From the IMG/VR virus record IMGVR_UViG_2974615235_000001, positions 1,236 to 65,235 of that record: 64,000 nt of DNA; one strand, given 5' to 3'. This stretch comes from a virus. Taxonomy: Duplodnaviria; Heunggongvirae; Uroviricota; Caudoviricetes. Every line of letters starts with the position of its first letter. The stretch's first letter is position 1. Both the position numbers and the translations under genes were made by a program. Shown in pieces: positions 17,372 to 62,270 of this stretch. The notes beneath the pieces are model-generated. The model saw only the letters and a list, made by a program, of their open reading frames with translations, had not been told where the DNA came from and made no database searches.

Positions 17372-20300
17372 ATGGCACAATTTGAGATTACAGACTTTCC
17401 AGAAATAGCTACGTTAACAGACGAAGAAAACTTTGTATTCTATGTTAAGAGGATTACGGATGGACAAGATTATAAGATTAAGCTAGGCAACTTTCAAGGG
17501 TTAATTCTTGATACTGTGTCTGGACAAGGTGAAGACTTTATACAACAGATAGTAGACCAATTACTACCTGATATAGAGTCTTCTTTTGAACAAGATTTAG
17601 AAGATCAAGTAGCAGAAGCCATAGCCTCTGAAAGAGTTCAAAGGGAAATTGAACTAAAGATTGATGAAATACTAGGGGAGGATTTTGAGAACCCCTATAC
17701 CACCATTGTTGCTGAAGTTAACTCTGTTATCGACAATGCACGTACTAACAAGAAGTTCTCTAAAGAGATTACTCTAGTAAATAATACGCTTGATGTAGTT
17801 AACAATGAAAAATTACCTGCACTACAAGAGGAACTAGATAACCTAAACAATGTAGTGTTACCGCAAGTTAATGCCACTATTGCTCAAGTAGAATCTGATT
17901 TAGCTACTCTTAATGAGGTAGACTTACCTGAGTTAGATACCTCATTAGAGGCTCTGGATGACTCTCTGACAACATTAAATGATGTAACCCTACCTGCCCT
18001 AGAGGGAAGATTAGCACAAGCTGAGATTGAGTTACAGAACCTCAACGCAGTAGACTTGACAGTATTACAGAATGAGCTAGACCAGATTAATGAAGATTTA
18101 GATACACTTAATAATACTACATTACCTGCACTAGAAGCCACTGTACAAGCCGTACAAGACGATTTAGACAATCTTGACCTTACTGGGTTACAGAATGATT
18201 TAAACGCGGCACAGAGCGATATAGACACTCTCAACAACACTACTATCCCTAATATCAATACTACGTTAGGAGGTCTAAGCACAGACTTAGATAACCTTAA
18301 CAATGTAAAGCTACCTGAGATAGATAGTACCTTAGGTGAGTTAGAGAATAACTTGCTAGACTTATCTGATGAACTTACCCTCTTAGATGAGAATACAGAA
18401 GAACTCAATGAAGCACTGTACATTGTTGAGGATATAAATAGTATCCTTGAGAATAGACAAACTCTTAGAGAGCAACGTAAGTCCTCTAATGTATTGGGGA
18501 GAGATTTAGACAACCTTAACCAAGTGGTGTTACCTAATGTACAAGAAACATTAGAAGCTGCTAGGGTTGACATATCTACTCTTAATAACACAACTATCCC
18601 TTCTTTACAAAACTCTGTAAGAGACACCGCTGCTAGTGTTGACACATTGGGGGATAAGTTCCCTATTACGGAAACAGATATAACTGATGGGGCGATCACT
18701 ACTCCCAAGATTGCGACTAATGCAGTCACAGCTAATGAGATACTGGCAGGAACAATAACCTCTAATGAGATTGCTGCCCTTACTATTATTGGTCAGAATA
18801 TCTTAGGAGAAACAATTTCCGCTGACAAACTAATAGCTAACACAATCACTGCCAATGAGATAGCCTCTGAGACTATCACAGGTAATGAGATTGCAGCTAA
18901 CAGTGTCAACGCGGATAGGCTCGTTGCTAACAGTATTACTGCCGCACAGATAGATGCAGGCACAATTACTGCCAATGAACTTTCTGCTGACAGTGTAGAC
19001 ACCTTACAGTTAGTAACTGATTCCGTGATAGCAGATAAGATTGCATCTAACGCAGTTACAGCAGATAAGATACTAGCAGGGAGTGTTACCACTAATAAAC
19101 TATTCTCAGGGGCGGTCACTACAGATAAACTCTTCGCAGGGGCTGTAACCTCAGAGAAGATAGAGTCTCGGACTATTGTAGCAGAGAATATCCAGCTTGG
19201 TACTCTAACAGGTAATGAGATTGCTGTAAATAGTATTAATGCAGACAGGATTGTGGCTAACAGTATAGGCGCTAATCAGATCGCTGCCAATGCTATCACC
19301 GTAGATGAACTTGCTTCTAATAGTGTAACCTCTGTTAAGATTGTATCTGGCGCTATTACGACTGACAAGATGACAGCTAACACAATTAACGGTGACAGGA
19401 TTACTGCTAACACATTAGACGCATCTAAAATTGTTGCTGAGAGTATATCTGCTAGAGAGATTGCCGCCTTATCTATTACAGGTGATTTAATTAAAGGTAA
19501 TACGATAGAAGGGGATAAACTTGTAGTTAACTCTATCTCTGGTGACAGGATTACTACTAACACTCTCAATGGTAATAAGATTACCGCAGGGACTATCAGC
19601 GCAGACAGACTAGTGGCGAATAGCATCACTTCGGGGCAACTTGCTGCTAATAGTGTCACAGCCAGTGAGATTCAGGCAGGTAGTGTCTCTACAGATAAGA
19701 TGGTAGCCAACAGTATTAACGGTGACAGGATTACTTCTAATACTTTACACGCTGATAAAATCGTAGCAGGGACTATTGGTGCTAGAGAGATTACTGCTAA
19801 TAGCATTACAGCAGGAGAGATAGCGTCTCTTACCATAACAGGTAACGAAATCAAAGGTAATAGCGTTCACGCTGATAAGATCATTGCCAACACGATTGGA
19901 GCTAGAGAGATTACTGCTAATAGTATTACATCTGATGAGATTGCCGCTAACACTATTATAGGTGGCAATATCCTCGGTAATACTATCACAGGTGATAAGA
20001 TTAAGGCTAACCAGATTGATGCTAGTCATATACAAGCAGACGCTGTTGAGGCTGATGCTATCAAAGCGAGGGTTATCACAGGAGACAAGTTAGCCTTTGA
20101 GACTATCACAGGTGATTTGATAGCAGCCAATACATTAACCACTAAGAACCTTGTAGTAAGTGACTTTGAGAATCTTACCTATGGAAGTGACTTTGAAGTG
20201 GCAGAGGAAATTCCTTGGGATTTGTCAGACCCTAGCATTTATGTAGTTAACGCAACCAACATATCTCAAAATGCATTACAATTTGCCTCTGAGGGGAGTG

Positions 20301-21664
20301 GTACTAGAAGCACGAGATTGAACTATAACCCAGAAGCTTCTCCTAATGAGGAGTGGTCATTGGAATATGACTTGTATACCACCAATGATTGGAATGGAAG
20401 TTCAGGTAACAGCAAGTTCAGGTTATCAGATGATCTCACCGGAGATTACTTAGCAGACGACCCTTTTGTGAACACAGGGGGAGGGTGGCTTAAAAGAGAG
20501 CATACTTTTACTTTCTCTAGCCCTGCAAGAGTAAATATCCAAATGTGGGCTAATCACACGACGGGTTTTCTTAGAATTACTAATATTAAACTTAGACGTA
20601 AGAAAGCAGGAAACCTTATAGTAGATGGTACTATCACAGCAACTCAGATAGCCGCCGAAGCGATTACTGCTACTAAGCTTAGTGCTGATGCCATAGATGG
20701 TAAACTCATTACAGGGACAATCCTACGCACTTCTGCAAGTACCTCTGTACCAAGAGTTGTTGTAGGCGACCCTTCCTTTCCTTTGTGGTATGGAACGGGG
20801 AATATTTCTACACAGAACATGGTGTTTGGGTTACTCTCTAACGGTACAGCCTATGCACAGAACCTTGTTATAGAGGATAACTCTGTGTTTAAAGGAAACC
20901 TTGTAGCAGCGAGTGGTACATTAGGAACTATAACTTCTGGAACTATCACAGGTACTACGATAAATGGTAACACTATAACAGGTGGTTCTATATCAGGTGC
21001 AACTATATCAGGTAATACTATTACAGGTGGGACTATAAGTGGTACTACTATTACAGGTACAACCGTTACAGGGGGTTTAATACGGACAGCTTCCTCTGGG
21101 TATAGGACAGAGCTTGACGATGGGACATACATGATATGGTCAGGTACTGGTACTAAGAATGACAGTAATGGTATATTCTGGGTTAAGAAGAATGGTACTG
21201 GTTTTATTAAAGGTGACTTCTTTCAAGGGGAAATTCTTGAAACTAAAACTGCTACGTTCTCTGATACAGCGAGTTCGTCAGGTAGTGCTTCTTTGACACA
21301 CAACTCTGCGGGTAAGGCTGTAACTATTAACACTCTTGGTACTTTAAACCTTGAAATGTCCGGAGACCAAAGAGACCAAGCAGGTAAGCTTCAGATAAGA
21401 GTGAGAGTAAAAAGAGGTAGCACTGTTATAGACAGCTATAACGACTATCCCTCTAATGTGGCATACTTGAATGAACCAGAAGCTAATATAAATAAAACCT
21501 TTTTCCGTTTCAGGTCATCTAATTTCTTTTTTGACACTACAACCTCGACAGGTGATAGAACTTACACCTTAGAGGTAGACTTCATAAACGGAGGGGCATC
21601 AGGGACTGTAGCTGTTCCTAATATAGGCGGTTCTATCAAAACCGAAGAAAACAAACTTGCATAG
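17372..21664 (+). CDS. long tail fiber protein (repeat-rich)
   Basis: 1430 aa; about 21-aa LDxLNNxxLP repeats, then about 40 copies of an 11-aa (A/G)N(S/T)ITxxxIxA repeat, then C-terminal TI(T/S)G heptad-like repeats. Confidence 0.7.
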   Translation: MAQFEITDFPEIATLTDEENFVFYVKRITDGQDYKIKLGNFQGLILDTVSGQGEDFIQQIVDQLLPDIESSFEQDLEDQVAEAIASERVQREIELKIDEILGEDFENPYTTIVAEVNSVIDNARTNKKFSKEITLVNNTLDVVNNEKLPALQEELDNLNNVVLPQVNATIAQVESDLATLNEVDLPELDTSLEALDDSLTTLNDVTLPALEGRLAQAEIELQNLNAVDLTVLQNELDQINEDLDTLNNTTLPALEATVQAVQDDLDNLDLTGLQNDLNAAQSDIDTLNNTTIPNINTTLGGLSTDLDNLNNVKLPEIDSTLGELENNLLDLSDELTLLDENTEELNEALYIVEDINSILENRQTLREQRKSSNVLGRDLDNLNQVVLPNVQETLEAARVDISTLNNTTIPSLQNSVRDTAASVDTLGDKFPITETDITDGAITTPKIATNAVTANEILAGTITSNEIAALTIIGQNILGETISADKLIANTITANEIASETITGNEIAANSVNADRLVANSITAAQIDAGTITANELSADSVDTLQLVTDSVIADKIASNAVTADKILAGSVTTNKLFSGAVTTDKLFAGAVTSEKIESRTIVAENIQLGTLTGNEIAVNSINADRIVANSIGANQIAANAITVDELASNSVTSVKIVSGAITTDKMTANTINGDRITANTLDASKIVAESISAREIAALSITGDLIKGNTIEGDKLVVNSISGDRITTNTLNGNKITAGTISADRLVANSITSGQLAANSVTASEIQAGSVSTDKMVANSINGDRITSNTLHADKIVAGTIGAREITANSITAGEIASLTITGNEIKGNSVHADKIIANTIGAREITANSITSDEIAANTIIGGNILGNTITGDKIKANQIDASHIQADAVEADAIKARVITGDKLAFETITGDLIAANTLTTKNLVVSDFENLTYGSDFEVAEEIPWDLSDPSIYVVNATNISQNALQFASEGSGTRSTRLNYNPEASPNEEWSLEYDLYTTNDWNGSSGNSKFRLSDDLTGDYLADDPFVNTGGGWLKREHTFTFSSPARVNIQMWANHTTGFLRITNIKLRRKKAGNLIVDGTITATQIAAEAITATKLSADAIDGKLITGTILRTSASTSVPRVVVGDPSFPLWYGTGNISTQNMVFGLLSNGTAYAQNLVIEDNSVFKGNLVAASGTLGTITSGTITGTTINGNTITGGSISGATISGNTITGGTISGTTITGTTVTGGLIRTASSGYRTELDDGTYMIWSGTGTKNDSNGIFWVKKNGTGFIKGDFFQGEILETKTATFSDTASSSGSASLTHNSAGKAVTINTLGTLNLEMSGDQRDQAGKLQIRVRVKRGSTVIDSYNDYPSNVAYLNEPEANINKTFFRFRSSNFFFDTTTSTGDRTYTLEVDFINGGASGTVAVPNIGGSIKTEENKLA

Positions 21665-21671
21665 GTGCTTT

Positions 21672-21995
21672 ATGAAATTACCTCTTTACGGAGGAGTCCT
21701 TTTAGGTCTTCTCCTTTTAACCACAGGATGTGAAGATAGTAAGCCTCTTGTAAAGAAAGACTTTGATAATACAGGGCAAGAATTAGTCTTAACTGTACAT
21801 ACATACGATTCTTTACAACAACTCAATAATAATGTACGTGAACCTGCTCTTGGTTTAAAAGGGCAAGCTTATTTACTAGGAAACGATTGTGAAATCAAAC
21901 TTTATGAACCTAAGTCATTGAGAGAAGATGATGAGTTTGCCCTTACATTAGGGCATGAACTTATGCACTGCCTCTATGGTAACTATCATAAATAA
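21672..21995 (+). CDS. small lipoprotein with HExxH motif (possible superinfection-exclusion lipoprotein)
   Basis: Signal peptide plus lipobox LLTTG|C; C-terminal GHELMHCLYGNYH; AGGTG RBS; the alternative ATG 21657 overlaps the fiber stop. Confidence 0.5.
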   Translation: MKLPLYGGVLLGLLLLTTGCEDSKPLVKKDFDNTGQELVLTVHTYDSLQQLNNNVREPALGLKGQAYLLGNDCEIKLYEPKSLREDDEFALTLGHELMHCLYGNYHK

Positions 21996-22014: not shown

Positions 22015-23124
22015 ATGGCTGTAAATCCAGTACAATTTTTAGTTGCTTCAAATGCAAGCATAACAGATGGGTCTAAGATAGTAAATATCTCAGGTAATGT
22101 AGACTGTAGTAGAGTATATTCTGGTACAGCGGTATTCCTTGGCGGGGCTGATAACCCTGCTGAGGCTGTCTCTGGCACAAGCCCAGATGGAAGCGGTAAT
22201 TCTACAATCACTTTACGTAATAACTGGTCTCAAGGGGATGTAGTTAATCAACAGATGGTTACATTCAATACGAATGAGGGTCTTGCTGAGGCTATTTCTA
22301 ATGTAAGGGAGATTGTTAGTAATGTCTCTGCTATAGAGGATTTAGCTACGCAAGGTCTTATCAAGAGGATTGATGATAATAACTATGAAGTAGTGAATAT
22401 ATCTTCTCAAGGGGAGTCTCTCATTACGGCCAATGACGCTTCTAGTCAAAGGAGTGTGATGGGGTTAGGTAGTGCTGCTACGAAGGATGTAGGCACTGCC
22501 GCTGGCAATGTGATGGAGGTAGGGGCTTTTGGTGTAGGTGTAAACCAAACGACAATAATTAGTGATATAAACGCGGTTACAGATGGGTCATCTGGTTTCT
22601 ATGGAATAAATAACGGCACAATAGGAAAGCCAGAATTTGGGGGAAATACCTTCGGAGTTGTAACCAAATTTCCTTATACCAATTTTCAGCCACAACTATT
22701 TACTGGTAGCGTTGGAACTGGCAACCCTACCGCAGCCATACGAGTTTACGACGATCTTACGAGTTCGTTTTCTGATTGGTTAGAGTTTCACCACAGCGGT
22801 AACACTAACTTTAATGAGTTTGGTGGAAATGTTGGAGACACCATTGCAACGGGCGCAGCGCATGGAGCGAACTATGCTAGTTTTGAGTTACCTATTAACA
22901 GTACAAGCTCCCCCGCAGGGGTAAGTGTAGCAGGGGCTTTTTCTGTTGTCGCTAAGAGCGGTACAGCCACTAGAGTAGCTAGTACTACTGTTAATTTTAG
23001 TGGTGCAGACAGTAGTAAAAAAATTGCGGTGGTTAGTGTCACATCATCAGGGGCTTTTACGGCAGGTGAGGTATTAATTCTACGCAGTGCAGCTAACAAC
23101 TCTAAAATAACAGTAAACTTCTAA
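22015..23124 (+). CDS. second fiber / receptor-binding-like structural protein (hypothetical)
   Basis: 369 aa Gly/Ser/Thr/Asn-rich protein after the long fiber. Confidence 0.3.
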   Translation: MAVNPVQFLVASNASITDGSKIVNISGNVDCSRVYSGTAVFLGGADNPAEAVSGTSPDGSGNSTITLRNNWSQGDVVNQQMVTFNTNEGLAEAISNVREIVSNVSAIEDLATQGLIKRIDDNNYEVVNISSQGESLITANDASSQRSVMGLGSAATKDVGTAAGNVMEVGAFGVGVNQTTIISDINAVTDGSSGFYGINNGTIGKPEFGGNTFGVVTKFPYTNFQPQLFTGSVGTGNPTAAIRVYDDLTSSFSDWLEFHHSGNTNFNEFGGNVGDTIATGAAHGANYASFELPINSTSSPAGVSVAGAFSVVAKSGTATRVASTTVNFSGADSSKKIAVVSVTSSGAFTAGEVLILRSAANNSKITVNF

Positions 23125-23136
23125 TAGGAAATCAAC

Positions 23137-23724
23137 ATGCTTAAATTTATAGACGAAAACGACTTTTTATTAGTTGATACCTACAAAGAAAATGAAGATG
23201 GTTCTGTGTCATGGGTATATGACGAAGGGGAGGGGCTTCCTACACACTCTGGTGTTATCAGGGAAGGTTTCAAAAGGTTCACACAATACCCAGATGGCTC
23301 TGACAAGGAAATAGACGTATGGGCTAAGTTATGGGAACTACATAATGATGAACAAGTGTCTATCAATGTTCTTCCCGTAGACATACAACTTCTAAGAGAC
23401 AATGCTAAACAAGTGGTAAACTCTCAAAGAGATAGTCTTATCAACGGAGGGGTCTCTTTCAATGGACACACTTTCCAAACAGACGCTACCTCTATCATGG
23501 ATATGATGAGAGCAATCATGGCAGGGATAGACACTACATGGCTCACTGCTGATAACCAACAAGTCCCTATGACTAATGCAGGTATGGTAGCTCTAGGAGG
23601 CGCTGTAGCTGCCCACAAAGAGAGTTTAGTGTTTAAGGCAAGAGTACATAAGGACAACATTGAAAGTCTTGATACAAAGGCTGACATTGACGATTATGTA
23701 GCTACAATGTCTTGGGAGGACTAA
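23137..23724 (+). CDS. possible tail fiber assembly chaperone (hypothetical)
   Basis: 195 aa ORF following a fiber-like gene. Confidence 0.2.
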   Translation: MLKFIDENDFLLVDTYKENEDGSVSWVYDEGEGLPTHSGVIREGFKRFTQYPDGSDKEIDVWAKLWELHNDEQVSINVLPVDIQLLRDNAKQVVNSQRDSLINGGVSFNGHTFQTDATSIMDMMRAIMAGIDTTWLTADNQQVPMTNAGMVALGGAVAAHKESLVFKARVHKDNIESLDTKADIDDYVATMSWED

Positions 23725-24134
23725 TGCAAGTAATCCTAGGAACAAGTAATAGCATAGGGAGTCTAGCTATTAGACTCCACAACTTTAGTAAGTGGTCTCA
23801 TTGCGGAGTTATTATTAATAACAAAGTTATTGAGGCAACAGCAGGGCATGGGGTAGTTGAATCTACTCTAGAGTCTTTTAAGAGTCGCTATCCTAAATGG
23901 AAAATTATAGAAGTACCCCATAAAGGTGATTACCAGAAAAGGTTGTATGACCAAATAGGTAAGTCTTACGATTGGGGTGCTATCTTTAAGTTTGTCTTTA
24001 GAGGTGATTGGTCTGATACAGACAAATGGTTCTGTTATGAGTTAGCCGCTTATGCAAGTGGTGTATTGAATAATAAATATTTAGATAGGGTGACAGCCAC
24101 TCATCTATTAATGATAAGTGAGGAAGAAACGTAA
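23712..24134 (+). CDS. putative cell-wall hydrolase (permuted papain-like NlpC/P60-type fold); endolysin candidate
   Basis: 140 aa; His (..KWSHCG..) preceding a Cys in ..WFCYELAAY.. as in permuted NlpC/P60/YaeF-like enzymes; heads the lysis cassette. Confidence 0.3.
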   Translation: MGGLMQVILGTSNSIGSLAIRLHNFSKWSHCGVIINNKVIEATAGHGVVESTLESFKSRYPKWKIIEVPHKGDYQKRLYDQIGKSYDWGAIFKFVFRGDWSDTDKWFCYELAAYASGVLNNKYLDRVTATHLLMISEEET

Positions 24135-24511
24135 TGGCTATAAGCCCAGAGTTAGTATCTCTAGTATCTGCTGCTCTTGCTACAGGAAGTGGTGTAGGGA
24201 ATGTTTGGTTTTGGTATGACAAGAAGAAAGGCGATAAAGCGTCAGAAGCCTTCCAAAAGAAACTAGACTTGTTAGATACTTTAGTAGATGACCTAGCTAA
24301 ACAACAAGTAGAACACGATAATAAATTTATCACAGAAGAGCAGACAAGAAAACTTTTACAAGAGTATTTCGCTGAACTTAAACAATCTTGGTCAGACACT
24401 AATTCTGACGTTAAAGATATTAAAAATAACCTTATGGAGTTGACCATGCAATTAAGAGTTCTAAATGCTGTAAGGGATATAGAGAAAGAACTTACGACTA
24501 AGAAGGAATAA
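24134..24511 (+). CDS. membrane protein, single N-terminal TM plus coiled coil (holin/antiholin-like)
   Basis: 125 aa; hydrophobic N-terminus LVSLVSAALATGSGVGNVWFWY; ATGG overlap with upstream gene. Confidence 0.3.
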   Translation: MAISPELVSLVSAALATGSGVGNVWFWYDKKKGDKASEAFQKKLDLLDTLVDDLAKQQVEHDNKFITEEQTRKLLQEYFAELKQSWSDTNSDVKDIKNNLMELTMQLRVLNAVRDIEKELTTKKE

Positions 24512-24513
24512 CT

Positions 24514-24963
24514 ATGAAAGCCTTTATCGTAGATGATGACCCTATTACATTAACACTGGTTGCATTTATGCTTAATGAGGAGGGAGTAGAGACGCAGTAT
24601 TGTCTCTCTCCTGTTCCAGACAACCTCTATAAGGATATAGAGGAATTTCACCCTGACGTAATTATACTAGATATTTACTTAGAAAACGAAAGTGGTTTTG
24701 AAGTAGCTAAGAAGATACGTCAGAGTGAGAAGTTAAAAGATACACCTATTGTAGCTATATCAGGATCACATTCCGTAGAGGATAAACTACAAGCCTTTGT
24801 AACAGGGTTCATTGACTATATCCCTAAACCTTTCACTAAAGATGAGATACTCCAAACAGTGCGTAAATATGGTTACTCTAGTGAGATACTCAGATTGTGT
24901 GAAAGAATTAATAAAAGGGAGGAACTAGATCGTGAGTTATATTTTAAGTTTGATAAAGAATAG
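24514..24963 (+). CDS. stand-alone response-regulator receiver (CheY-like REC) domain protein
   Basis: 149 aa; complete REC signature: DDD (7-9), phospho-acceptor Asp in VIILDIY, Ser in AISGS, Lys in IPKPF; no output domain. Confidence 0.65.
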   Translation: MKAFIVDDDPITLTLVAFMLNEEGVETQYCLSPVPDNLYKDIEEFHPDVIILDIYLENESGFEVAKKIRQSEKLKDTPIVAISGSHSVEDKLQAFVTGFIDYIPKPFTKDEILQTVRKYGYSSEILRLCERINKREELDRELYFKFDKE

Positions 24964-25342
24964 GAAACTAGTTATAGGGATTGTTGTTGTAGGATTGCTA
25001 GGTATTAGTGCTTACTTAGGTTGGAATAGGTTAGAATCATCTATCTACCAAGAGGGTTACAGTGCTGCTGTAATAGAATACCAAGGTAAGCTACAAAAGG
25101 CCCAAAAGGAATATAATAGGGAAATTGAATATAAGCTTACACAACAAAGAACCTTACTCGCTCAGAGACATAAGAATGAGATGCGTAGGTTAGAAGCCGA
25201 ATCCGTGGTAGATAAAGAGGTTCAAACTGTCACAGAATACATAGAGGAAAAGATTTATGTTAAAGAAGAGTGCGATATTGTTCCTCCTGATCTTAACAGG
25301 ATGTTCAACAACTCCATCGACTCCATCAACGGAAGTAAATAA
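24932..25342 (+). CDS. i-spanin (Rz-like)
   Basis: 136 aa; N-terminal TM (LVIGIVVVGLLGISAYLGW) then charged coiled-coil periplasmic domain; the o-spanin is embedded in another frame. Confidence 0.6.
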   Translation: MSYILSLIKNRKLVIGIVVVGLLGISAYLGWNRLESSIYQEGYSAAVIEYQGKLQKAQKEYNREIEYKLTQQRTLLAQRHKNEMRRLEAESVVDKEVQTVTEYIEEKIYVKEECDIVPPDLNRMFNNSIDSINGSK

Positions 25343-25556
25343 GATTGATGAGAAGCTCCTAGAAGCCCCTATAAGCCCTTCTTTGTTAGTACCCTGTAGG
25401 GTAGCTTACCCTTTAAAGAGATATGCCTCTGAAGGCTCTCTCAGAGAGTTCTACGAGGTGTCTATATACAATCTAGGTCAGGTTAATAAATGCTACAATA
25501 AAGATGAGGCTTTAATAGAGGAAGTCAAGGAGAGGGATAATGTGGGGAAAGATTAA
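25257..25556 (+). CDS. o-spanin (Rz1-like outer-membrane lipoprotein)
   Basis: 99 aa; signal peptide plus lipobox LILTG|C; Pro/Ser/Thr-rich; starts inside the i-spanin gene in the +1 frame. Confidence 0.65.
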   Translation: MLKKSAILFLLILTGCSTTPSTPSTEVNKIDEKLLEAPISPSLLVPCRVAYPLKRYASEGSLREFYEVSIYNLGQVNKCYNKDEALIEEVKERDNVGKD

Positions 25557-25803
25557 AGAGTTCTTTACACACAAGTCTCTTAGAGAGTTAGCCACTACAT
25601 TGAATGCTTTCTGTATTGTAGAGATAGTTGTAATAGGGTTCTTCTCTTGGCAAGCTTACGACTTACTACAGTGGTATAAAGAGATCACTACTCCTGTCAC
25701 ATTTAACGCTACAGCATTTTGGGCTGCTATCAGTGGTATTGTTGCGGCAGTGTTTAGCGCATTGAAGTATATAAACCACACATATGAGGCTCGTAAGGAA
25801 TGA
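25540..25803 (+). CDS. holin candidate (two TM helices)
   Basis: 87 aa; two hydrophobic segments (FCIVEIVVIGFFSW; FWAAISGIVAAVFSAL); adjacent to spanins. Confidence 0.45.
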   Translation: MWGKIKEFFTHKSLRELATTLNAFCIVEIVVIGFFSWQAYDLLQWYKEITTPVTFNATAFWAAISGIVAAVFSALKYINHTYEARKE

Positions 25804-26033: not shown

Positions 26034-26593
26034 TGGCTACGATAATTAATCATTACATGAGCAAGATAACAGATTTATTCACTAAACAAGGCAGATCCGT
26101 AACAAGTCTTATAGAAAGCGGTGGATGGGTGTTTAAACAAATAGACACATACACGGAAGCGTCACCTCTTACAGTAGTACAAGGTAATAAGGTTAAACTT
26201 ACTATTCCTCTACAAGACGAAGGCTTCTTCCGTAGTAAATACTTTGAGCTGTCTTACGACTATACCTCACAGAAATTCACTCCTGTTACGGAAGATGATG
26301 TATACCTTGCTAACTTCAGAATGAAGGCTAAACCCTCTACACAGGCAGGTTATCTTAATTTCACTTTAGAATCTCCTAACGTTAGTTATAACCCTCTAAA
26401 TGGGGGAACACTTACATTCACAAAGAGCGCCAATGAAGAACATTTCTTCAGCCCAGATCTCACAGTTTTTATAGGGGAGGATGTAAGACAAAATGGAATA
26501 GAAGTTTGGGTAGAGGCAGTAGATTGTGATGTAGAAATTTATGATTATAGTTTTCTCATTACAAGACTGTTCAGCGATAAAAGGAATCCTTGA
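26033..26593 (+). CDS. hypothetical protein
   Basis: 186 aa ORF; ATGG overlap. Confidence 0.35.
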   Translation: MATIINHYMSKITDLFTKQGRSVTSLIESGGWVFKQIDTYTEASPLTVVQGNKVKLTIPLQDEGFFRSKYFELSYDYTSQKFTPVTEDDVYLANFRMKAKPSTQAGYLNFTLESPNVSYNPLNGGTLTFTKSANEEHFFSPDLTVFIGEDVRQNGIEVWVEAVDCDVEIYDYSFLITRLFSDKRNP

Positions 26594-27000
26594 TGGAATT
26601 ATTAAGACGATATTATGACGATAGGACAGAAGGTAAGTGGATATTCCCTGATGACTCTTATTGTTTCAATTTAGAGAGACCTTGGCTAAACAATAAAGTT
26701 AACGAGAGTTGCATTCCAGAGGGTACGTATATTGTATGCGAGGATTCGACAGGGAAACATCAGTGGTTTAAGTTTAAGGATGTACCTAATAGAACCTTCA
26801 TTGAAATGCACCCTGCATCTAAAGTTTCAGAGTTACTAGGGTGTCTAGCTCCTTGTATGGAACTCCGTAATGGGTATGCCTATCGTAATAAAGAAGCATT
26901 AATGAAATTCAAAGAATGGTTTCCTAATAAAGGTGAATGCTTCGTAGTTACGATTAGAAAATGGCATCCTAGAAGAGATGGTAAATGGAGAGAGGAATAA
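26590..27000 (+). CDS. hypothetical protein (Cys/His-rich, possible hydrolase)
   Basis: 136 aa ORF, last gene of the + strand block; followed by repeat element and terminator. Confidence 0.35.
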   Translation: MMELLRRYYDDRTEGKWIFPDDSYCFNLERPWLNNKVNESCIPEGTYIVCEDSTGKHQWFKFKDVPNRTFIEMHPASKVSELLGCLAPCMELRNGYAYRNKEALMKFKEWFPNKGECFVVTIRKWHPRRDGKWREE

Positions 27001-31550: not shown

Positions 31551-32444
31551 TTATCGAATTTGATTGCCTACAGCCACTTGAGTGGCAATACTGTCTACCA
31601 TGTTAGAAGGGATGATCATCTTATTATCCGACTTTGCCATTTCATACATAATTTGAATATTATGGTATTGCAGGTACTCTGGCGTGACAGTAGATGCCAT
31701 GATACGGTTAACTTCTGCCTCTGCTTCTGCTTTCTCTACATCAATCTTACGTTGAAGTTGTTGCTCTTGGAGTTTACGCTCTAACTGTACTTTAGAAATC
31801 TCTAGTTGTGCATTCTCCTGCTCAATACGTTCTCTGCGTTCTGCTGCTAACTCTTGCGCTTTAGTTATAATCTCTGGGTAAGCTACATCCGCTAACCCGA
31901 TGTAACGAACTAAGAATGGTGTTGTTTGTTGTAATTCCTTTCTCAATTCATTGGCAAGGATAGTGTTAATACCCTCACGGCTAGAAGCAATCTCAGCTAT
32001 AGTATACTCTGCCAAAAGTTCACGCGCCTTAGAGCGAACTAGCTGTTGCGCATAAGTAGTGTAAATCTTACCTAAAGGTATCTGCTGATTAATAGCTGGA
32101 ATGCGATCAAACAACGAGTCATATTGTGCAGGGTTAGGTGTTAGAGTGAGTCGGATGTCGAAACTCATTTTTAGCTTATCTTTTGGCATGAACAACTCCA
32201 TACGCTCTGTGTAGGAGGAGTCTGATACATCCATAGTGATAAGCTTATCACAGTATGTCCAACACTTATCTAAGCGGAATTTAGAAGTGGTAATAACCCC
32301 CTCCTTATACCCGTTTTTCCCCATCACCTTGCCAACATGCGCAGGAGGAACTTCCACTTTTTCTCCCCAGAAGCACCCACCTAAAGAGAATGCCAATACA
32401 CCTATTGCTAATACCTTGCCTAAACGTTTTTTAATATTCTTCAT
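31551..32444 (-). CDS. SPFH/band-7 (HflK/C-, stomatin-like) domain lipoprotein
   Basis: 297 aa; lipobox FSLGG|C; central SPFH-like region; C-terminal Glu/Gln/Arg coiled coil typical of HflKC/flotillin proteins. Confidence 0.55.
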   Translation of the reverse strand: MKNIKKRLGKVLAIGVLAFSLGGCFWGEKVEVPPAHVGKVMGKNGYKEGVITTSKFRLDKCWTYCDKLITMDVSDSSYTERMELFMPKDKLKMSFDIRLTLTPNPAQYDSLFDRIPAINQQIPLGKIYTTYAQQLVRSKARELLAEYTIAEIASSREGINTILANELRKELQQTTPFLVRYIGLADVAYPEIITKAQELAAERRERIEQENAQLEISKVQLERKLQEQQLQRKIDVEKAEAEAEVNRIMASTVTPEYLQYHNIQIMYEMAKSDNKMIIPSNMVDSIATQVAVGNQIR

Positions 32445-62009: not shown

Positions 62010-62270
62010 ATGAAACGATTAATACTAACACTAGGGCTGGCGCTATTTCTCACTGGGTGTGTGGAGGAAAAAGTGGTTTATTTGAATGAGAAAGGTGAAG
62101 AGTTAGCGCCACCTGCTAGAGCTATGCCTGATTGGAGCAATAACGTAAAGGAAATTTGTGTTAAAGGGGTTGTGTATTATCACACTACATACGGGGCTAG
62201 TGCAACGATGTCTCCTAAGATTATACCTAGTAACAACCAGTTCAATAAACCTTTTATAGAAAAATGCTAG
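62010..62270 (+). CDS. small lipoprotein
   Basis: 86 aa; signal peptide plus lipobox FLTG|C; RBS AGGAGGG; preceded by conserved upstream element. Confidence 0.5.
   Translation: MKRLILTLGLALFLTGCVEEKVVYLNEKGEELAPPARAMPDWSNNVKEICVKGVVYYHTTYGASATMSPKIIPSNNQFNKPFIEKC

Follow-up and report, generated by a model that had tools for sequence, protein, structure and literature searches.

A small gene in the fibre module of Alteromonas phage V22 encodes a predicted exported lipoprotein with an invariant HExxH...H motif on a predicted zincin-like scaffold

Between two fibre genes of the Alteromonas myovirus vB_AmeM_PT11-V22 (MN877442) lies a short gene, gp25 (ORF25), and its product raises the question of what a phage would do with a small lipoprotein that ends in a metal-binding-like motif. 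The window analysed here, the whole stretch of 64,000 nucleotides from IMG/VR record IMGVR_UViG_2974615235_000001, matches V22 with 100% identity. The coding sequence of gp25 occupies positions 21672..21995 on the plus strand (107 codons and a TAA stop) according to the list of open reading frames, GenBank CDS QHZ59750.1 and the homologues. In GenBank, QHZ59750.1 is annotated as "hypothetical protein". The two experimental papers on this region give gp25 only under this designation, and neither of them mentions its lipoprotein signal or its HExxH motif (PMC7289586, PMC10579305). A preliminary description of the locus had proposed a blocker of the phage's own receptor, comparable to the lipoprotein Llp of phage T5, and as a secondary idea a tiny metallopeptidase.

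The gene upstream of gp25 encodes the 1430-residue "central fibre" gp24 (17372..21664, plus strand; PMC10579305, Table 2). It terminates with a TAG at 21662-21664 and the ATG of gp25 at 21672 comes 7 nt later, so that the two genes do not overlap as had initially been stated. The sole start of gp25 that would overlap gp24, a TTG at 21657, receives no backing from the homologues, which all begin with MK. A Shine-Dalgarno-like AGGTG can be read from the sequence at 21663..21667 on the plus strand, 4 nt 5' of the gp25 ATG. As it shares bases with the gp24 stop codon, translational coupling of gp25 to gp24 is suggested. A scan for promoter- or terminator-like sites flanking gp25 gave none beyond the expectation from shuffled sequences, and a promoter or terminator specific to this gene was discarded for that reason. 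Downstream, gp25 is followed at a distance of 19 nt by gp26 (22015..23124, plus strand), the experimentally shown receptor-binding tail fibre, and by the tail-fibre chaperone gp27 (23137..23724, plus strand; Pfam DUF4376, E 3e-21) (PMC7289586). The gene thus does lie directly behind a long fibre gene, as the preliminary description said. However, the receptor-binding fibre is the downstream gp26, whereas a fusion of the upstream gp24 to GFP did not bind host cells (PMC7289586; PMC10579305).

The protein of 107 aa reads MKLPLYGGVLLGLLLLTTG/CEDS...LTLGHELMHCLYGNYHK (full translation MKLPLYGGVLLGLLLLTTG/CEDSKPLVKKDFDNTGQELVLTVHTYDSLQQLNNNVREPALGLKGQAYLLGNDCEIKLYEPKSLREDDEFALTLGHELMHCLYGNYHK, the slash preceding the lipobox Cys) and has the C-terminus GHELMHCLYGNYHK. 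Its N-terminus combines K2, an uncharged hydrophobic core and the lipobox LTTG/C20 (LLTTG/C) and matches the PROSITE pattern PS51257. The predicted lipoprotein signal peptide (residues 1-19) and lipobox extend over 21672..21731 on the plus strand, and Cys20 (21729-21731, plus strand), the predicted acylated N-terminus of mature gp25, is invariant in our alignments A1 and A2. A lipobox Cys according to the PROSITE rule is present in 124 of 167 relatives, and the initial reading of gp25 as a 107-residue lipoprotein holds. Of the remaining relatives, most have one of three other N-termini: a near-lipobox, a type-I signal peptide with AxA, or a hydrophobic anchor that stays uncleaved. In a few, which are fragments truncated at the N-terminus, no signal was detected, and in two of the 167 a membrane helix comes after a cytoplasmic extension at the N-terminus. 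Since a lipobox, near-lipobox, signal peptide or anchor is found nearly throughout, the domain of the gp25 family is almost always extracytoplasmic. Judged by these N-termini, it is not always lipid-anchored and not necessarily located at the outer membrane. The residue following the lipobox Cys is variable among relatives (S 24, E 20, D 20, T 16, G 15 and others) and therefore does not assign gp25 to the inner or the outer membrane. Overall, its sequence identifies gp25 as an exported protein of a usually lipid-anchored kind, with lipidation being predicted. The following residues 21-37 (21732..21782, plus strand) form a putative flexible tether with a pLDDT of 55-77 in both AlphaFold2 models. 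It holds a family-conserved F-D-[RN]-x-G motif (consensus FDRxG in alignment A2) right ahead of strand 1.

The predicted zinc site and catalytic motif at the other end of the protein, H95-E96-L-M-H99-C-L-Y-G103-N-Y-H106 (HExxHxxxGxxH; HELMHCLYGNYH, 21954..21989, plus strand), comprises three of the four histidine residues of gp25. When the whole window is translated in all six frames, the pattern occurs a single time, and HExxH with a nearby third His arises in only 0.11% of shuffled gp25 sequences. It is present in 165 of 167 relatives, and 157 of the 167 terminate no more than six residues past the last His; gp25 itself ends one residue after His106. Among 50 diverse members that are 19-63% identical to gp25 (alignment A2), the only invariant residues are C20, G64, C73, G94, H95, E96, H99, C100, G103 and H106, and alignments A1 and A3 agree with A2 in this regard. 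Given its uniqueness in the window, its rarity in shuffled sequences, its presence in 165 of 167 relatives and its invariance in A1-A3, the motif is far beyond chance, and the C-terminal HExxH...H pattern that had been pointed out before is confirmed. A Glu that invariably accompanies the first His distinguishes catalytic zincin sites from metal sites with a structural role. The HELMH segment (residues 95-99) falls within a predicted helix comprising residues 88-102, and the invariant third putative zinc ligand, His106, is found 6 residues past His99, after the turn at Gly103. Two further residues that are invariant in A1-A3, Cys73 at the start of strand 3 (21888..21890, plus strand) and Cys100 on the putative active-site helix right after His99 (21969..21971, plus strand), are predicted to form a disulfide because the domain is extracytoplasmic.

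AlphaFold2 models from 18 and 57 sequences had a mean pLDDT of 79 and 86.5, respectively, with values of 91-98 for the folded core (residues 38-107; 21783..21992, plus strand). This core is predicted to consist of a strand (39-45), a short helix (48-53), a beta-hairpin (64-69/72-78) and helix 88-102, followed by the G103 turn and H106, and the HExxH-bearing helix is placed behind the three-stranded sheet. According to these models, the gp25 core equals the N-terminal subdomain of zincins, and nothing comes after the third ligand; gp25 has no C-terminal subdomain, the part which in zincins bounds the cleft from below and provides the S1' pocket. The weak structural matches of gp25 were zincins in nearly all cases. 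In BFVD, two uncharacterised members of the family were followed by SprT-like, IrrE-like and MMP-like viral proteins. A Foldseek search of the PDB gave no significant match, with collagenase ColH at the top (E 0.6) and Spartan at a probability of 0.51. An assignment to the metzincins was rejected, as the spacing HExxHxxxGxxH contains one extra residue in comparison with HExxHxxGxxH/D and no sequence is left for a Met-turn. Among 177,635 PDB sequences, the top match of profile A1 was selecase (MJ1213; PDB 4QHF-4QHJ), a minimal metallopeptidase of 110 residues from the archaeon Methanocaldococcus jannaschii. This match is marginal and restricted to the motif region (E 0.035 with profile A1, 0.25 with A2), where "DDefaLtLGheLmhCLYGnYh" is aligned to "SDEEIRFILAHELLHLKYGKYH" (residues 58-80 of 4qhf/4qhi); the spacing of selecase, H69ExxH73xxYGxYH80, equals that of HExxHxxYGxYH in gp25. 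Apart from selecase, the top PDB sequence matches of the family profile were lipoprotein signal peptides. With an invariant HExxH...H motif on a predicted zincin-like scaffold of sheet plus helix, the tiny metallopeptidase is the best-supported reading of gp25. As modelled, selection has kept a zincin metal and catalytic motif, the Gly turn and the Cys pair on a scaffold that ends at the third ligand.

A word-indexed search returned 17 relatives with 35-98% identity. When all of 1.84 billion cluster representatives were searched exhaustively with a profile, 557 passed E <= 1e-3, these being clusters at 50% identity, and 105 passed E <= 1e-10. The best 150 of the 557 are nearly all 95-140 aa long. 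Scans of gp25 and up to 50 diverse members against Pfam, PHROGs and NCBIfam found no family model; phrog_27783 (unknown function) was a weak match, and lipoprotein signal models matched the N-terminus only. All names of the relatives in their source databases are "hypothetical protein". At least 124 confirmed loci are present in IMG/VR, and 185,579 bacterial and archaeal species genomes (one per species) contain 14 loci, mostly on viral-looking MAG contigs. The only deposited phage genomes with a member are those of V22, schitovirus A5 (gp7) and Kyanoviridae phage C48C1, and phages of all three tail types carry the family. It is thus a large and almost purely viral family that marine phages often carry and for which Pfam, PHROGs and NCBIfam have no entry.

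Relatives that are more than ~38% identical to gp25 are found in the same slot, in the order giant central fibre, lipoprotein, tail fibre and DUF4376 chaperone. This order is shared by V22-like myovirus contigs, schitovirus A5 and a contig with an SU10/P22-type portal; a tblastn search of the phage collection with gp27 found V22 and A5 only. The giant proteins that precede more distant lipoprotein genes have only the C-terminal lectin-like head in common with gp24 (residues ~1207-1429; ~20990-21658, plus strand). Once near-duplicates were removed, 51 loci were left for which contexts could be counted. The gene follows a gp24-like giant (fibre) protein in 10 of them, and 16 belong to Kyanoviridae-like genomes, in which it comes right after a staphylococcal-nuclease-like gene and is itself followed by the gene for a conserved 207-233-aa protein of unknown function. 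The remaining loci are spread over other contexts, such as the neighbourhood of primase/helicase or ribonucleotide reductase genes. In siphovirus P24, the homologous central fibre, tail fibre and chaperone are gp43-gp44-gp45, and from their consecutive numbering a gp25 homologue is absent (PMC10579305, Table 2). Its viral distribution, the several unrelated contexts and its absence from the P24 module mark the gp25 gene as accessory and mobile. Three pairs of contigs allowed a comparison of gp25 with the neighbouring fibre. In L016/L017, gp25 is 96% identical, as are the N-terminal 120 aa of gp26, and the chaperone is 95% identical, with only 31% identity in the last 200 aa of gp26. The same region of gp26 is 32% identical in L014/L015 and 31% in L008/A5, with gp25 identities of 99% and 96%, respectively. 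Hence, gp25 does not co-vary with the C-terminus of gp26 and is independent of the receptor-binding tip.

These comparisons bear directly on the role as receptor blocker that had been put first in the preliminary description. A protein of the Llp/Cor superinfection-exclusion type would be a non-catalytic plug: from the periplasm, it would bind the outer-membrane receptor of its own phage, block adsorption and thereby protect the progeny. Like Llp and Cor, gp25 is a small phage lipoprotein, and its gene in V22 lies beside that of a receptor-binding protein just as T5 llp adjoins oad; in V22, in A5 and in some ten lineages of related contigs, the gene stands directly between fibre genes. However, Llp does not contain the HExxH that gp25 has. 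Homology to Llp was ruled out, since hhalign aligned the family profile with T5 Llp over 24 columns within the signal peptide only (residues 1-25), and gp25 has no match to an Llp or Cor family in Pfam or PHROGs. Its invariant residues represent a catalytic-type motif instead of a binding surface, and gp25 remains 96-99% identical between contigs whose gp26 tips share only ~31% identity. Moreover, most relatives are encoded away from fibre genes (~10 of 51 non-redundant loci are fibre-adjacent), and some are not lipoproteins but soluble periplasmic proteins or held in the inner membrane by a transmembrane helix. The gene is part of a putative late operon; T5 llp, by contrast, is transcribed divergently from a promoter of its own. 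By its gene numbering, P24 lacks a gp25 homologue, and the lectin-like heads have been taken as an argument that the fibre receptors are saccharides and not an outer-membrane protein (PMC10579305). We consider a plug of this type quite improbable: homology, co-variation and context comparisons gave no support for a receptor-specific plug, which leaves the original main idea unsupported. Superinfection exclusion may nevertheless be achieved by gp25 through proteolysis. A protease for fibre assembly or maturation, with the central fibre, the tail fibre or the chaperone "cap" as its substrate, is very doubtful, too. It would agree with the conservation of the slot between gp24 and gp26/gp27 across myo- and podovirus modules, with the linkage to the gp24 lectin-like head that lasts into distant contigs, and with the grouping of gp25 among "tail-related genes involved in host recognition" (PMC10579305). 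On the other hand, the conserved export signal directs gp25 to a compartment other than that of cytoplasmic virion assembly, functional GFP-gp26 required gp27 alone and not gp25 (PMC7289586), the fibre module of P24 does without gp25 (PMC10579305), and most relatives are far from fibre genes.

The vicinity of the lysis genes brings up yet another identity for gp25, namely that of an o-spanin, the outer-membrane lipoprotein subunit of a spanin. Rz1-like o-spanins are likewise small phage lipoproteins of Gram-negative hosts, only a few genes separate gp25 from the lysis genes downstream of it (it lies ~3 kb upstream of the i-spanin ORF31), and in Kyanoviridae-like contigs a weakly GTA_holin_3TM-like gene (E 4.5e-4, under the Pfam cut-off) is located three genes upstream. 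However, V22 has a separate overlapped pair composed of i-spanin ORF31 (24932-25342; membrane helix and coiled coil, Rz-like, E 7e-6) and an unannotated ORF for a Pro-rich lipoprotein as the o-spanin (25257-25556). Together with the holin candidate ORF32 (two predicted membrane helices) and an endolysin candidate, a DUF5675 protein at 26590-27000 whose counterpart in related contigs is a Peptidase_M15_3 protein, the lysis set of V22 is complete just downstream of the gp25 region. In addition, gp25 is predicted to be a well-folded, enzyme-like and motif-bearing domain and not a Pro-rich unstructured peptide, its relatives adjoin no i-spanin-like gene in most contexts, and inner-membrane-anchored variants exist. 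The o-spanin identity is effectively refuted by the separate pair of V22, and we regard it as extremely improbable. Of more weight, but still unlikely, is an exported metal-binding protein that is no peptidase, for instance a hydrolase of some other substrate, such as peptidoglycan stem peptides, a YbeY-like nuclease or a catalytically dead zinc- or metal-binding module. Proteins of the YbeY type (UPF0054) are metal-dependent endoribonucleases with the motif HxxxHxxxxxH and no catalytic Glu. They lack the Glu of HExxH, whereas Glu96 is invariant in the gp25 family, and they differ further as cytoplasmic RNases of twice the size of gp25 with 13-17% identity. Periplasmic RNA is an implausible substrate, V22 already possesses the candidate endolysin mentioned above, and the spacing of the motif in gp25 is that of an active peptidase, selecase.

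We lean towards gp25 being an exported, membrane-tethered mini-zincin metallopeptidase that would act in the periplasm of the host. It would be an accessory protein exported to the envelope of the infected cell and not a part of the virion. The protein would be made from the late fibre operon, presumably late in infection and probably with translational coupling to gp24, enter the Sec pathway, receive its lipid at Cys20 and be held on a periplasm-facing membrane by a flexible linker of ~17 residues. Its remaining ~70 residues would fold into a three-stranded sheet against one helix, corresponding to the N-terminal half of a zincin. One zinc ion would be bound by two histidines of the helix, His95 and His99, together with His106 past the Gly103 turn, Glu96 would serve as general base of the peptidase, and the Cys73-Cys100 pair would staple the active-site helix to the sheet. 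Since gp25 stops one residue past the third ligand, it lacks the C-terminal subdomain, so that its active site would be open; this site might be completed by dimerisation or by the substrate. We know of no characterised zincin that works without any C-terminal subdomain, and gp25 might therefore be inactive on its own or no peptidase at all. The substrate would be a protein or peptide of the periplasm or envelope, expected to be common to many hosts whichever surface receptor the phage uses. That gp25 is unchanged across tip swaps points to a target common to Gram-negative envelopes or to incoming phages instead of the cognate receptor, and a common target is also suggested by the occurrence of the family in all three tail types and its loss from one homologous module (P24). 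Provided that gp25 is a peptidase, it is possible, if rather unlikely, that proteolysis prevents more phages from adsorbing to or entering the infected cell or its debris. A contribution to the break-down of the envelope at lysis would be less likely again, and what is left of the probability falls to some other function. Nothing relevant was found in a literature search for lipoprotein metalloproteases that phages use in superinfection exclusion.

The nearest published concept is that of the mini-zincins or minigluzincins of about 105-115 residues (PMC3890501). Acel_2062 (3E11), proabylysin (4JIU) and projannalysin (4JIX) are cytoplasmic and have kept their C-terminal helices. Their third ligand is an Asp or Glu at another spacing (HExxHxxGxxD in Acel_2062), whereas His106 is predicted for this role in gp25. 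The gp25 core of ~70 residues is smaller than these proteins, does not have their C-terminal helices and shows no detectable sequence relationship to them. Based on sequence and models, gp25 would be a phage-specific, truncated and so far unannotated version of the mini-zincin kind. A bolder proposal, which we put forward only tentatively and hold to be rather unlikely as a whole, is that gp25 founds a phage-specific family of the smallest zincins seen so far, which have a core of ~70 residues, no C-terminal subdomain and their third zinc ligand at the last residue but one. Marine phages of all three tail types would export them, tethered by a lipid or a helix, to the host periplasm to remodel the envelope of the infected cell by proteolysis, either for receptor-independent exclusion and progeny protection or as an accessory step of egress.

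The gp25 family went unnoticed inside a host-recognition module that had been dissected experimentally in two papers (PMC7289586, PMC10579305). Its case also calls for caution, as a lipoprotein gene beside a fibre gene need not encode a receptor blocker of the Llp/Cor type. An active gp25 would push the lower size limit of zincin peptidases further down, and the C-terminal subdomain would be dispensable or supplied in trans, which bears on the evolution and design of proteases. To our knowledge, few enzymes are known that phages send to the periplasm of their hosts by the Sec/lipoprotein route. A periplasmic phage protease would hint that marine phages manipulate the envelope of their hosts at a layer that has remained unstudied.

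The central fibre gp24 (1430 aa), encoded upstream of the lipoprotein gene gp25, carries a C-terminal lectin-like head (residues ~1207–1429; 20990–21658), and it is through this head alone, at 38–47% identity, that gp24 resembles a set of giant proteins (1200–1930 aa) to which the rest of the fibre is unrelated. These proteins sit before the lipoprotein gene in the distant contigs L008, L016, L020 and L035, so that the gp24-type head domain and the lipoprotein gene seem to travel together. On the 3' side of the lipoprotein gene, we compared the gene for the gp26-like receptor-binding tail fibre in three pairs with near-identical modules (L016/L017, L014/L015 and L008/schitovirus A5). The first 120 aa of the fibre share 96–98% identity within L016/L017 and L014/L015, chaperone identity within the compared pairs reaches up to 95%, and the C-terminal tips are unrelated in all three pairs (~31% identity). 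By this comparison, the three contig pairs are clean examples of tip swapping with a breakpoint within the tail-fibre gene.

The mini-zincin lipoprotein also recurs in Kyanoviridae-like contigs as part of a conserved trio with an SNase-like endonuclease and a protein of 207–233 aa (15–16 non-redundant loci; for example, L062, 5622–6971, and phage C48C1, 5667–7016; also L059, L021 and L037). Overlaps of a few bases are frequent between the trio genes, and the third protein has no match in Pfam or PHROG. Glycosyltransferase genes lie near the trio, and a membrane protein with a weak GTA_holin_3TM match is encoded three genes 5' of it. Two of the 167 gp25 relatives, P0164 (183 aa) and P0145 (202 aa), have a predicted topology in which an N-terminal cytoplasmic extension and a membrane helix precede the mini-zincin domain; the extension of P0164 contains zinc-finger-like CxxC...C motifs with weak LIM/RING matches. 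This predicted layout suggests that a bitopic protein can display the mini-zincin domain from the inner membrane.

V22 encodes further predicted lipoproteins. An unannotated ORF of 99 aa (25257–25556, +) has a good lipobox (MLKKSAILFLLILTG/CSTTPSTPST...) and is Pro-rich; it falls in a gap that the GenBank record leaves between ORF31 and ORF32 and overlaps the 3' end of ORF31 (24932–25342). ORF31 combines an N-terminal membrane helix with a coiled coil and matches Rz-like spanin PHROGs (E 7e-6); taken as a pair, the two ORFs resemble i- and o-spanin genes in the classic overlapped arrangement. Another small gene, at 62010–62270 (+), encodes a predicted lipoprotein of 86 aa (MKRLILTLGLALFLTG/C...) that matches Pfam LPAM_1 (E 1.6e-4) and has a weak 'Rz-like spanin' PHROG match within its N-terminal half (residues 1–55). 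The neighbours of this gene are small early-type ORFs. The annotated stomatin-like protein ORF42 (31551–32444, −) also has an N-terminal lipoprotein signal (…AFSLGG/C), and thus at least four predicted lipoproteins are encoded by V22.

The remaining lysis cassette lies directly 3' of the V22 fibre module. It comprises ORF29 (24134–24511, +; 125 aa), with a hydrophobic Gly-rich N-terminus followed by a coiled coil, the holin candidate ORF32 (25540–25803, +; 87 aa, two predicted membrane helices) and a DUF5675 protein (26590–27000, +; E 3e-17). The latter is likely the endolysin of V22; related contigs encode a Peptidase_M15_3 at the matching position. Thus, the published ten-gene 'host recognition module' common to V22 and A5 also includes lysis genes.
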